Assembly (NCBI GenBank): GCA_963798485.1
Contig: CAWCTR010000018.1
Span: forward strand, 32,573-96,572
Length of the DNA stretch: 64,000 nt
Direction: 5' to 3'
Origin: an uncultured delta proteobacterium
GTDB taxonomy: Bacteria > Desulfobacterota > Desulfomonilia > UBA1062
Position numbers and translations under genes: made by a program
Notes under the pieces: generated by a model
What the model was told of the DNA's origin: nothing
Databases searched by the model: none
The model's input: the letters and a program-made list of their open reading frames with translations, nothing else
Shown: positions 32,265-42,018 of the stretch, piece after piece
Numbering within the stretch: the stretch's first letter is position 1
Layout: each line of letters begins with the position of its first letter

Positions 32265-33992
32265 ATGAAGAAGATCCTCAGCGGCAATGAGGCGGTGGCG
32301 CGGGGTGCGTATGAGGCAGGTATTTCCTTTGCCGCAGCATATCCCGGCACACCCAGCACCGAGATCCTTGAAACCATTGCAAAGGAATACAAAGACATCC
32401 ATTCCGAGTGGGCCCCCAACGAGAAGGTGGCCCTGGAGGTGGCGGTGGGCGCATCGTACGCAGGCGTACGGGCGCTGGCCGTTATGAAGCACGTGGGGGT
32501 GAATGTGGCGGCGGACCCGCTCATGACATTGCCATATACCCTTATACGGGGCGGTATCGTGCTCATCAGCGCGGATGACCCCGAGCTGTTCTCCTCCCAG
32601 AATGAGCAGGACAACCGCCATTATGCCAGGTTTGCAAAAATCGCCATGCTTGAGCCTTCAAGTTCGCAGGAGGCAAAGGATTTCACAAAGGAGGCCTTTA
32701 CGATCAGCGAGGAATTCGGCACACCCGTTATGGTGCGGACCACCACGCGGATCGCGCATTCCATGGGTGTTGTGGATCTATCAGAACCCTTGGTGCGGAA
32801 AACCCCCAGCCTGGAACGGCACCCCGCAGAGTGGGTCATGCTGCCTGCCAATGCCAGGCGCCGCCACCCTGTCATTGAGGAGCGTATGCTTGCCCTGAAG
32901 AAGCTTTCAAACACCACTTCCATGAACTACATGGAGATGGCTGATACCAAGATAGGTATCATCTCTTCGGGGGTGGCGTATCAATATGCCAGGGAAGCAT
33001 TTTCCAATGCCTCCTTCCTGAAGATCGGCATGCCGTACCCGTTCCCGGATAAGTTGGTCAGGGAGTTCGCCGGCAAGGTGAAAGAGTTGTGGGTCGTGGA
33101 AGAACTTGATCCATTCATGGAGGAGCAGGTAAAGGCCTTGGGTATTGCTTGTCACGGCAAGGACCGTATCCCCATGTGCGGAGAGCTGAACCCGGATATC
33201 ATCAAGGCCGCCATCTCAGGCGAGCCTGTGGTAAAGCCCGGCCAACCTGCGCTGCCCGGAAGGCCGCCTTCCATGTGCCCGGGTTGCCCTCACCGCAGCA
33301 TGCTCTGGGCCCTTAGGCGGAATAAAACATTCATAGCAGGCGACATCGGATGCTACACCCTGGGCTTTTTGCCGCCTCTGGACGCCATTGACACGTGTCT
33401 GTGCATGGGCGCAGGCATCAATCATGCCCACGGTATGTCCAAGGTGTTCGGACCGGGCAAGGAAAAGCTCACTGCGGTCATCGGCGATTCCACCTTCTAT
33501 CATTCCGGCATCACGGGGCTTTTAAACCTCGCGTATAACCGGGGCGCGGCATTGATCGTGATTCTGGACAACCGGACGACGGCCATGACCGGCGCACAGA
33601 ACCACCCGGGTACGGGCGTTACCATTGAGGGGCAAAAGAACACCACCATAGACCTTGAAGGCCTGGTGAAGGCCCTTGGTATCGAGTGGGTAAAGACCAT
33701 CAACCCCTATGATGTCAAAGGTGCGCGGCAGACGGTGAAAGAGGCCCTGGCCTCCAGCGGCCCCTCGGTCATCATTTCAAAGGCGCCGTGCGTATTGCTC
33801 AAGACACGCTCCGTGCCGGGCAAACCTTTACGTGTGGACGCCCTGAAGTGCACGGGCTGCAAGGTGTGCCTTTCCCTTGGATGTCCGGCCCTTGAATTCA
33901 AAGACGAGAAGGCGCATATTAACGAGGTTTGTGTGGGTTGTAATGTATGCGCAGACCTCTGCAGCGTAGAAGCCATCGGAGGTGAAAAATGA
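32265..33992 (+). CDS. iorA: Indolepyruvate (arylpyruvate):ferredoxin oxidoreductase alpha subunit
   Basis: GNEAVARG, YPGTPSTE, MKHVG.NVAAD, SSQNEQD, CPGCPHR, GDIGCY, two C-terminal 4Fe-4S motifs. Confidence 0.95.
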   Translation: MKKILSGNEAVARGAYEAGISFAAAYPGTPSTEILETIAKEYKDIHSEWAPNEKVALEVAVGASYAGVRALAVMKHVGVNVAADPLMTLPYTLIRGGIVLISADDPELFSSQNEQDNRHYARFAKIAMLEPSSSQEAKDFTKEAFTISEEFGTPVMVRTTTRIAHSMGVVDLSEPLVRKTPSLERHPAEWVMLPANARRRHPVIEERMLALKKLSNTTSMNYMEMADTKIGIISSGVAYQYAREAFSNASFLKIGMPYPFPDKLVREFAGKVKELWVVEELDPFMEEQVKALGIACHGKDRIPMCGELNPDIIKAAISGEPVVKPGQPALPGRPPSMCPGCPHRSMLWALRRNKTFIAGDIGCYTLGFLPPLDAIDTCLCMGAGINHAHGMSKVFGPGKEKLTAVIGDSTFYHSGITGLLNLAYNRGAALIVILDNRTTAMTGAQNHPGTGVTIEGQKNTTIDLEGLVKALGIEWVKTINPYDVKGARQTVKEALASSGPSVIISKAPCVLLKTRSVPGKPLRVDALKCTGCKVCLSLGCPALEFKDEKAHINEVCVGCNVCADLCSVEAIGGEK

Positions 33993-34558
33993 ACGTGCTC
34001 ATGACTGGTGTCGGAGGGCAGGGCATCATCCTTGCCTCTGATGTACTGACTGAGTTGATGATGCGCCATGGTCTGGATGTGAAGAAATCCGAGATACACG
34101 GCATGGCCCAGCGAGGTGGAAGCGTCATGTCTCATGTGCGTTTTGCCCGGCATGTTTCATCGCCCCTTATCCCCTATGGCTGCTGCGACATCCTGCTGTC
34201 ATTCGAGGAACTGGAGACCGCGCGCTATATGGAGTATATCAAGGCCGATACCATCGTGATCATCAACCGGTTCCGGCTCTCTCCGCCTACGGTCATTGCA
34301 GGAAAGGAATCTTACCCGGACATTGTCCCGGTCCTGAAAGAAAAGGCTCTGAATATCCGGATGGTTGACGGCAGCGCCCTGGCGTCCGAGCTGGGCAACG
34401 CCAGAGGTGTAAACGTTATCCTGCTTGGTGTGCTCTCAATGGTGCTTGAGCCTGCCGAGTCGCTCTGGATAGAGACCCTGACCGATATGCTCCCCGAGAA
34501 GATCAGGGTCCAAAACATTGAAGGCTTCAAACGGGGAAGGCTCTTAAAGGCCCAGTGA
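33989..34558 (+). CDS. iorB: Indolepyruvate oxidoreductase beta subunit
   Basis: GVGGQG, SEIHGMAQRGGSV..HVRF; overlaps iorA stop. Confidence 0.95.
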   Translation: MNVLMTGVGGQGIILASDVLTELMMRHGLDVKKSEIHGMAQRGGSVMSHVRFARHVSSPLIPYGCCDILLSFEELETARYMEYIKADTIVIINRFRLSPPTVIAGKESYPDIVPVLKEKALNIRMVDGSALASELGNARGVNVILLGVLSMVLEPAESLWIETLTDMLPEKIRVQNIEGFKRGRLLKAQ

Positions 34559-34586
34559 ATTATCTTCAGACAGGAGGTTTTAAGGA

Positions 34587-39979: not shown

Positions 39980-40740
39980 TTTTGAAGGCGGTAGCGCTCT
40001 CCAAGAGTTTCATGGGCATCCATGCATTGAGTGATGTGTCCCTTGATGTGGTGAAGGGGGAGATCTTAGGCGTCATCGGTCCCAATGGGGCGGGCAAGAC
40101 CACGTTGTTCAACGTGCTCACCGGGCTTTTTGATGCGGATACCGGGCGCATAGAGCTGGGCGGCAGGGCCATCACAAGGCTCATGCCCCACCGCCGGGTC
40201 AGGCTCGGCATGGCCAGGACCTTCCAGAACCTTGAGATATTCCGTGATATGAGCGTGCTGGAAAATGTCATGGTGGGGGGGCATACGAGGCTCAAGGCAG
40301 GCTACTGGCAAAGCATGCTGGGCACGTGGGGCAAGCGGAAAGAAGAGAAGGCGCTCAGGGATGAATCGCTTGCGCTCCTTGACCGGCTCGGCATAGGAGA
40401 GTCGGCCCATGAAGCCGCAGTGAGCCTGTCCTACGGCAATCAGCGCAGGGTGGAGATCGCCAGGGCCTTAGCCGCCAGACCGGCCATCATATTCCTGGAT
40501 GAGCCTGCGGCCGGCATGAATCCCAAGGAGACCCGGGAACTCTCCGAGCTCATCGTGAGGCTCAAAGGCGAGCTGGAACTTACTGTCGTAATCATCGAGC
40601 ATGACATGAACCTCATCATGGACATCTGCGACCGCATTGTGGTGATGACCGAAGGGAGGGTGCTCTGTTCGGGCGTTCCGAGCGACATCCGGAAAGACCC
40701 CAGGGTCTTGGAAGCCTATCTGGGAGGGGAGATATTATGA
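39976..40740 (+). CDS. livG: HAAT ABC ATPase (LivG-like)
   Basis: GPNGAGKTT, ARTFQN, LSYGNQRR.EIARAL, DEPAAGMN, IEHDM. Confidence 0.9.
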   Translation: MILKAVALSKSFMGIHALSDVSLDVVKGEILGVIGPNGAGKTTLFNVLTGLFDADTGRIELGGRAITRLMPHRRVRLGMARTFQNLEIFRDMSVLENVMVGGHTRLKAGYWQSMLGTWGKRKEEKALRDESLALLDRLGIGESAHEAAVSLSYGNQRRVEIARALAARPAIIFLDEPAAGMNPKETRELSELIVRLKGELELTVVIIEHDMNLIMDICDRIVVMTEGRVLCSGVPSDIRKDPRVLEAYLGGEIL

Positions 40741-42018
40741 TGCATGAAACACTCTACGAGACGATGCCGCGCAGCGAACTGGAGGTCTTTCAGCTCGAAC
40801 GCCTCCAGTCCACACTGAACAGGGCGTATCTGAACGTCGCCCACTACCGCAGGGCCCTCGATGGCGCGGGCATCCTGCCTGATGATGTGAGGTCGCTCTC
40901 CGACATCAAGAACCTGCCCTTTACCACCAGGGCCGATATCGAGAAGGGCTACCCCTACGATATGTTCGCCGTGCCGCTGCGTGAGGTGGTGCGCATCCAC
41001 ACCTCTTCCGGCCAGGCGCGCAAGCCCATTGTCACCGGGTATACGGCAGGCGATCTGAAGGCATGGGCCAGGCTCATGGCCAGGTTCCTGGTGGGGGCGG
41101 GCATTTCCAAGGACGACGTGATCCAGATCGCCTTCCGCTACGGCCTCATGACCGGCGGGTTCGGCTTCCACGCCGCAGCCGAGCTTATCGGCGCATCCGT
41201 CATCCCTGCCGACATCGGCAATACCGCAGAGCAGGTCATGATCATGCACGACTACCTCACCTCCATCATCGCCTGTACCCCCGGTTATGCCCTTATCCTG
41301 CTGGACAGGATCAACCAGATGAACATCAACCCCAGGACACTGCGCCTCAGGCGGGCGATTTTAGGAGCCGACCGGTTGAGCCCGATGGTGCGCTCGAAGA
41401 TCGAGCAGGGCCTCGGCGTGGAGGTGTTCAACAGCTATGGCTCCAGCGTGGTCATGGGGCCGGGCATAGCGGGTGAGTGCGGCGCGCATGACGGGCATGC
41501 ACGTGTATGAGGACTTCTTCATTGCCGAGGTCGTGGACCCCGCTACCGCAACGGTGCTGGGCCCGGGCGAAAAAGGCGAGCTCGTGATAACGACCCTCAT
41601 GCGCGAGGCCTTCCCCCTGATCCGCTACCGCACGGGCGACATCACCATGATAAAACAAGGTGTATGCCCCTGCGGCAGGACCCACATGAGGCTCGAAGAC
41701 TTTTACGGCAGGCTGGATGATACCATCAAGATCAAGGGTGTCAGCGTATCTCCCGAGCGGATCCTCCAGATTCTCAAGGCCGAAGGGGTGGAGGCCAGAA
41801 GCCAGGTACGCATATACCGGGAAGGCCCCTTCGAGCGCGCCGATGTCCTGCTTGAGGTGGGAGAGAAGCTGTTCTTCGATGAAATGAGGGCCCAGAAGTC
41901 CTTTATGGAAAAGCTCGAAAAGGCGCTCCATACGGGTACCAGCGTGCGTATAGGCGTGAGGATCGTCCCTTCTTCGGCATTCAAAGGCAAGGCCATGGTG
42001 GTGGATGAACGGGAGTAG
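40737..42018 (+). pseudogene. Second phenylacetate-CoA ligase paralog, split by a +1 frameshift (pseudogene or assembly error)
   Basis: ORFs 40737-41510 and 41473-42018 join into a full PaaK homolog (…GECGAHDG|MHVYED…) if one G of GGG at 41493-41495 is removed. Confidence 0.85.

Follow-up and report, generated by a model that had tools for sequence, protein, structure and literature searches.

The window analysed here comprises 64,000 nucleotides from an uncultured delta proteobacterium (contig CAWCTR010000018.1 of assembly GCA_963798485.1), whose source genome is 97.5% complete and 7% contaminated. Between positions 32265 and 42018 its plus strand carries an operon with the gene order iorA-iorB-paaK1-ACT-livK-livH-livM-livF-livG-paaK2, which combines an indolepyruvate oxidoreductase (IOR), arylacetate-CoA ligases of the PaaK type, an ACT protein and an ABC transporter that the source names call 'branched-chain amino acid'; an attenuator composed of a leader open reading frame (ORF), an antiterminator and a terminator lies directly 5' of position 32265. 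Accounts of the direction in which bacterial IOR-PaaK clusters operate differ: annotation treats them as catabolic, data from Bacteroides show release of phenylacetate, and a 2026 paper proposes biosynthesis. We present evidence that this operon is regulated like one for tyrosine and phenylalanine biosynthesis. Its genes are as follows:

32265..33992, plus strand: iorA, alpha subunit of arylpyruvate:ferredoxin oxidoreductase (TIGR03336, 738 bits against a cut-off of 651)
33989..34558, plus strand: iorB, beta subunit (best family NF005322, 223 against a cut-off of 237, slightly below)
34587..35888, plus strand: paaK1, AMP-forming arylacetate-CoA ligase with intact motifs (TIGR02155, 639 against a cut-off of 646)
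35906..36334, plus strand: stand-alone tandem-ACT protein (PF19571)
36408..37526, plus strand: livK-like binding protein of the LivJ/HAAT fold (family scan, structure model)
37528..39251, plus strand: livH and livM permeases (family scans)
39251..40740, plus strand: livF and livG ATPases (family scans)
40737..42018, plus strand: paaK2, frameshifted near 41496 in this assembly (two pieces, 40737-41510 and 41473-42018)

The initial annotation had described these genes as closely coupled, which holds for their order, strand and spacing (intergenic distances of -10 to +73 nt, the internal paaK2 overlap excepted), whereas its second paaK gene is not a whole ORF here. It had also stated that the operon encodes no aminotransferase, and family scans of the operon genes likewise show none.

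A tyrosine/phenylalanine attenuator precedes iorA

The region upstream of iorA contains the elements of an attenuator of the starvation type, as the initial annotation had supposed: a leader with a run of Tyr/Phe codons, competing hairpins and a terminator.

32075..32110, plus strand: putative sigma70 promoter, with TTGACA matched perfectly at 32075 and a poor match to the -10 box
32111..32179, plus strand: leader peptide MFQKTATQAYYYGFYFRKGVCP of 22 codons, seven of them Tyr/Phe
32138-32158, plus strand: control codons Y10, Y11, Y12, F14, Y15 and F16 of the leader ORF
32126..32189, plus strand: predicted protector (1:2) helix that forms without a ribosome (32126-32140 with 32176-32189)
32170..32219, plus strand: antiterminator (2:3), -21.2 kcal/mol on its own, formed between the 5' arm of the terminator and an arm around the leader stop codon
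32207..32240, plus strand: intrinsic terminator (3:4) with U-run (hairpin 32207-32233, -17.7 kcal/mol)

The leader region folds with a z-score of -3.8, none of 200 shuffles being equally stable, and no Rfam leader or T-box family matched the window at gathering score. As an estimate of chance, the genome contains 65,122 short ATG ORFs, 166 of which have at least five aromatic codons in eight, and a terminator follows four of these 166. We modelled the ribosome as a 12-15 nt mask on folds of the leader RNA. Over the full leader, the antiterminator prevails only while the A site lies at about codons 9-13, that is, at the Tyr run; in nascent RNA ending before the 3' arm of the terminator, a ribosome at codons 3-17 lets it form, and one anywhere between codon 19 and the stop never does.

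A pattern describing the pairing arms matched 30 of 121 genomes of the class, namely this genome, 29/51 others of its family and 0/69 of the other family, while the reversed pattern, used as a control, matched none of the 121. Among the best 30 of the 33 pattern matches, 28 lie before iorA and two before livK. Inspection of the 30 best iorA matches from 41 genomes found a leader with a terminator at 18/21 family loci with upstream DNA (one further family locus has no upstream DNA). Across the 30 pattern loci, 174/450 leader codons ahead of the stop are Tyr or Phe when read in frame, compared with 52 and 40 when read in the two other frames, and in-frame stops are absent from the leader at all 30, against 7 and 19 in the other frames. 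Trp codons number just two in all 30 leaders of this ior/liv motif. The terminator is paired in 96% of alignment cells and has two pairs changed on both sides (27/30 rows); the antiterminator is paired in 94% of cells over 27 rows, and is mostly invariant. In one relative (G015) the two leaders differ in composition, the iorA leader having Phe5/Tyr0 and the liv leader Tyr4/Phe3.

The sequence CTTGAC is invariant in 12/12 aligned leaders, and a simple promoter scan detected no site at 32075..32110. Since the distance from TTGAC to the leader ATG is 36-40 nt at 30/30 loci (searched in a window of 35-42) and a Shine-Dalgarno-like motif is present at just one of the 30, the alignment suggests that the transcription start coincides with the leader ATG or lies only a few bases away from it, and that these leader peptides are apparently leaderless.

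Leaders of the same type precede biosynthetic genes

A genome-wide scan recovered four ORFs combining an aromatic cluster with a terminator: the ior leader, a leader before the 3-deoxy-D-arabino-heptulosonate 7-phosphate (DAHP) synthase gene aroF, a third on contig C25, and one probable chance match. The aroF leader contains Phe, Tyr and Trp codons (G000:C14:200261, plus strand; L151) and is kept with its terminator at 28/30 loci. The C25 leader is Phe-only (MAPRHLTNNSFGFFFFE; G000:C25:20858, minus strand; L146), is kept with its terminator at 30/30 loci, and has its ATG 37-39 nt from a TTGAC-like box at 29/30. Behind it lies an operon for a binding protein, livG, a FadD-like ligase, livH, livM, livF and a PaaK-like ligase, a gene of which was matched in 36/52 family genomes. 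A leader with a Trp run and a terminator also precedes trpE (G000:C7:553198, plus strand; L230, examined in this genome alone), while pheA in this genome has no aromatic leader. Leaders of the same type before the DAHP synthase gene and trpE fix the starvation polarity of the ior attenuator. Moreover, these leaders match the products of their biosynthetic pathways, and those of aroF and C25 reproduce the ior masking pattern; thus, despite the name indolepyruvate oxidoreductase, the ior operon is wired like a biosynthetic operon for Tyr/Phe, and not for Trp.

Three further observations concern these leaders. The DAHP synthase terminator resembles the ior terminator, hinting at a common origin; the assembly breaks trpE into two frames; and a genome of the sister family (L229, G060:C1) has an aromatic leader and terminator before its DAHP synthase gene.

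The same comparison bears on the converse possibility that the operon is catabolic and induced by aromatic amino acids through arrest of the ribosome at the leader Pro-stop, the mechanism known from TnaC. All 30 leaders do end in Pro-stop; nevertheless, a ribosome held at the stop covers the antiterminator arm and so favours termination, the Pro codon is itself part of the pairing arm, DAHP synthase has the same layout, and markers of ring cleavage were not found (see below). We regard such induction as very improbable.

A proposed salvage route to tyrosine and phenylalanine

A check of the shikimate/prephenate pathway, which the initial annotation had proposed, found the de novo pathway present: DAHP synthase, AroK-AroB, AroQ, AroA, AroC and PheA score over their cut-offs, TyrA over its Pfam cut-off, and an AroE-like gene below; a HisC-type aminotransferase gene lies between pheA and tyrA. 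The organism is not an evident auxotroph. As to catabolism, PaaA was not found in this genome, two other oxidoreductases (on C17) scanned against the Pad models fell below the cut-offs, and the 52 family genomes, this one included, have no Oah over cut-off (one partial match). With the de novo pathway present and ring-degradation markers not found, salvage would be optional.

We favour a reading, to which we give a probability of roughly two in three, in which the operon, induced by starvation, imports an aryl acid, has PaaK1 activate it and IorAB carboxylate it reductively, and leaves transamination to an enzyme in trans. In silico, the leader RNA would be made with its ORF beginning near +1. 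As long as tRNA-Tyr/Phe is charged, the ribosome would reach the stop and cover the antiterminator arm, so that the terminator forms; under Tyr/Phe shortage it would stall at the control codons, the antiterminator would form first and the operon would be transcribed. The Liv-type ABC system would then import an aryl acid lacking an alpha-amino group, likeliest 4-hydroxyphenylacetate and/or phenylacetate. From what is known of its family, PaaK1 would convert this to arylacetyl-CoA at the cost of ATP to AMP, which favours activation, and IorAB would join CO2 to the arylacetyl-CoA with reduced ferredoxin to give the arylpyruvate. An aminotransferase from elsewhere, for which the HisC-type gene is a candidate, would complete Phe/Tyr, and the ACT protein might make either the ligase or the oxidoreductase responsive to end-product feedback. 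The route would supplement an intact de novo pathway.

The core of this scheme, an anabolic and starvation-induced operon, was already suggested in the initial annotation, and gains from the leader geometry, the biosynthetic sister leaders, the AMP-forming ligase, the failure to find ring-degradation markers and a probably co-regulated transporter whose modelled pocket suits a non-amino acid. We consider the anabolic direction as such very probable, and more so than the full sequence of steps.

A bidirectional role has also to be weighed, in which IOR runs oxidatively when aromatics are plentiful, aided by an ADP-forming ligase in trans, and PaaK recaptures the arylacetate on starvation, so that the system buffers pools with little net synthesis. 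IOR is reversible, and the iorA of the operon is the only close match in the genome. The genome also has 12 ADP-forming acyl-CoA ligase domains (PF13607), which make oxidative use possible in trans; none of the 12 is on this contig. Moreover, attenuation should reduce IOR precisely when Phe/Tyr are plentiful, and dedicated importers would be needless for buffering, and we find this role distinctly unlikely.

Besides these ligase domains, several results tell against the anabolic reading or the attenuator on which it leans. The switch pattern in nascent RNA was seen at 30/30 ortholog loci, an agreement that is partly by construction because the loci were picked by a pattern that holds both arms. 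In equilibrium folds of the full leader the terminator wins despite a stalled ribosome in most orthologs, so that the switch would depend on co-transcriptional timing. Covariation in the antiterminator does not exceed that of shuffles (68/500). No such leader was found at 3/21 family iorA loci with upstream DNA or at 8/8 sister-family loci. The Oah search gave no positive among the control genomes either. Finally, Bacteroides thetaiotaomicron makes phenylacetate from Phe in a manner dependent on phenylpyruvate:ferredoxin oxidoreductase (PPFOR), as described in PMC10809373 and likewise PMC13285125, which also speaks for the bidirectional role.

The substrate of the Liv transporter

LivK falls well short of the branched-chain amino acid binder family (157 bits against a cut-off of 477 for NF011933). 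Its structure model (mean predicted local distance difference test score, pLDDT, 94.7) best matches LivJ-type amino-acid binders and then 4obb, a complex with a 2-oxo acid; the closest relatives in fold are 4gnr, 3td9, 3ip5 and 4obb, with TM-scores of 0.86-0.88 and at most 32% identity. Ser79, Thr102, Tyr147 and Tyr199, positions with a role in LivJ, are invariant in LivK homologs, as are Arg10, Glu145 and Asp225. LivK thus resembles the LivJ/HAAT binders (4gnr, 3td9, 3ip5, and Anabaena 4obb with its N280D variants) in fold and in the Ser79, Thr102 and Tyr positions, and differs at the amino/oxo position, where an aromatic residue stands instead of the acid. In a profile alignment, Tyr223 falls on the Asn/Asp position that separates 4obb (2-oxo acid) from the amino-acid complexes of N280D (4nqr), and the acidic residue is rare there: among 84 aligned homologs this column has Tyr in 64, Phe in 19 and Asp in one. 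Because an aromatic residue replaces the acid at this position, the modelled pocket favours a carboxylate without an alpha-amino group.

The gene contexts of the transporter were also informative. LivK orthologs are present in 14/52 family genomes: in seven the gene comes after paaK(-ACT), three are stand-alone copies, each behind its own version of the attenuator, and the remaining four have none. The leaders of the stand-alone liv operons have Tyr4/Phe3, Tyr5/Phe0 and Tyr6/Phe0. Because these copies carry a Tyr-rich attenuator of their own, the Liv transporter is predicted to belong to the same attenuator regulon. Outside the family, 11/15 LivK orthologs follow a paaK-like gene. Within it, the ACT gene is present in 20/21 loci examined and is followed by Liv in six, a TRAP transporter in ten and neither in four.

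Some of these data would also suit the same starvation-induced anabolic operon with a different cargo, its ABC system importing Tyr/Phe, or arylpyruvates or aryl-lactates, while arylacetates diffuse in or use another carrier. The solved proteins nearest to LivK bind amino acids and are not the aromatic-acid binders of Rhodopseudomonas palustris, Ser79, Thr102 and both tyrosines are kept, and the invariant Asp225, near the pocket and two residues beyond position 223, could take over binding of the amino group; these points count against aryl-acid import. The sole solved relative with a non-acid at the key position binds a 2-oxo acid, and any source of Tyr would suit a leader that senses Tyr. 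Against this, the transporter travels with a paaK-like gene, both in the operons described here and at most of the outside loci, an acid stands at the discriminating position in only one of the 84 homologs, and a carboxylate-type TRAP system takes the same slot at 10/20 loci. We consider this cargo unlikely, and arylacetates the better candidates.

The TRAP transporter was noted in the Liv slot at L041:14547-17475 and nine other family loci, several of which have a convergent second ACT-like gene behind it. Its binding protein is nearest to 4n6d, 4pgn/4pgp and 4nap, and 4pgn/4pgp hold indole-pyruvate and indole-acetate.

The ligases and the ACT protein

PaaK1 is related to 2y27 with an E-value of 3e-155 and has intact adenylation motifs (P-loop, YGLSE, SDD and C-terminal Lys). 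The second ligase is different. One extra base near 41496 splits paaK2 here, while relatives have a whole ORF, and in 4/4 whole orthologs (63-92% identical to the window copy or to each other's reference) the P-loop is altered, Val replaces the Glu of YGLSE and the GKA motif is missing; the copy in the window retains only GKA. In two distant operons the second ligase is normal. Judging from its motifs, PaaK2 may be a pseudo-ligase. The frameshift and the degenerate motifs limit the initial annotation's reading of this gene as a ligase; it overlooked both, as well as the apparently leaderless leaders and the second, Phe-only attenuated operon.

The ACT gene starts at most 200 nt after paaK in 35 distinct cases among 91 loci. 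The only relative of its product in the PDB is 2f06, and PaaK1 is close to 4r1l; both are Bacteroides proteins, and Bacteroides likewise has IOR beside an AMP-forming ligase. On another contig of this genome (G000:C7:323690-331121, minus strand; L147), genes for a VorB-type oxidoreductase are followed by an ACT paralog and, 3.3 kb further on, by a PaaK-like ligase. Because this places an ACT gene right after a VOR-type enzyme, the ACT protein might act on the oxidoreductase. This VorB-ACT-PaaK-like set is possibly a parallel salvage module for branched-chain acids.

Taken jointly, the transporters, leaders and ligases permit a bolder reading, which we offer tentatively and with considerable doubt: the codons of the leaderless leaders might read out the substrate of each module, the Tyr-rich ones marking an ABC importer of a new kind for 4-hydroxyphenylacetate and the Phe-only one a second importer/ligase operon for phenylacetate, with PaaK2 as a conserved pseudo-ligase that aids the transporter by binding or gating the acid or channelling it to PaaK1. 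If true, sediment bacteria would have a complete, CO2-fixing route to Tyr and Phe based on cross-feeding, and leader composition would become a tool for annotating orphan transporters.

Comparison with known systems

The favoured route has its closest precedent in methanogens, where IOR makes aromatic amino acids from aryl acids beside the de novo route: PMC4162585 cites Porat et al. (2004) on a second pathway of Methanococcus maripaludis that takes aryl acids as substrates, and PMC13285125 cites the anabolic IOR of Methanothermobacter. In contrast to those systems, the present one is bacterial, has a ribosome-sensed attenuator and its own importer, and its leader senses Tyr/Phe and not Trp. 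PMC13285125 further reports that fermentative IORs adjoin kinases or ADP-forming ligases, and argues that IOR with an AMP-forming ligase is biosynthetic; it confirms the AMP-forming arylacetate-CoA ligase of Bacteroides and proposes a biosynthetic role for the IOR of that organism. In Bacteroides, then, the measured flux is from Phe to phenylacetate and biosynthesis is only proposed, whereas in the present operon it is the regulation that argues for biosynthesis. The aerobic (paa) and anaerobic (pad) routes of phenylacetate catabolism also start with a phenylacetate-CoA ligase; in contrast, PaaA, Oah and the Pad oxidoreductase subunits were not found over cut-off here.

As a switch, the attenuator resembles the enterobacterial pheL-pheA leader described in PMC3082878, which also names TnaC: both have a short ORF bearing a cognate-codon run, and both have competing hairpins and an intrinsic terminator. 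The present attenuator differs in its mixed Tyr/Phe codons, the lack of an Rfam match, the apparently leaderless start and its control of salvage and uptake genes. Switches between T-boxes and leader peptides are treated in PMC2965389, the main text of which has neither indolepyruvate nor phenylacetate. Our literature search, with most subscription literature outside its reach, turned up no report of ior-paaK genes under a leader-peptide attenuator. The salvage route (in methanococci, and proposed for Bacteroides) and attenuation as a type of switch are known already; new elements are importers under shared regulation, leaders that seem leaderless and a second ligase with degenerate motifs.

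On the question of direction, regulation, with aroF and trpE as controls, argues for biosynthesis. It brings a route known from methanogens and little tested in bacteria into a setting where enzymes usually labelled as aromatic-degrading may instead rebuild Tyr/Phe, and it names candidate aryl-acid importers that are now labelled 'branched-chain amino acid'. By implication, fermentation end products would be turned back into Phe/Tyr by sediment bacteria with fixation of CO2, and counts of ior/paaK in metagenomes should not be taken as aromatic degradation.

Neighbouring features

Within the operon, the spacer between the ACT gene and livK (36335-36407) contains a hairpin without a U-run that could stabilise or process the message. 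Downstream, the product of 42110-42673 is a hypothetical protein that has a hydrophobic stretch and weakly matches a zinc ribbon; many relatives have a homolog of it behind ACT or paaK2. On the other side, a gene for a Sel1-repeat protein (30576-31871, minus strand) is divergent from the operon, and further out lie ORFs that by eye resemble catalase-peroxidase (27830-30019, plus strand) and hybrid-cluster protein (44428-46062, minus strand).

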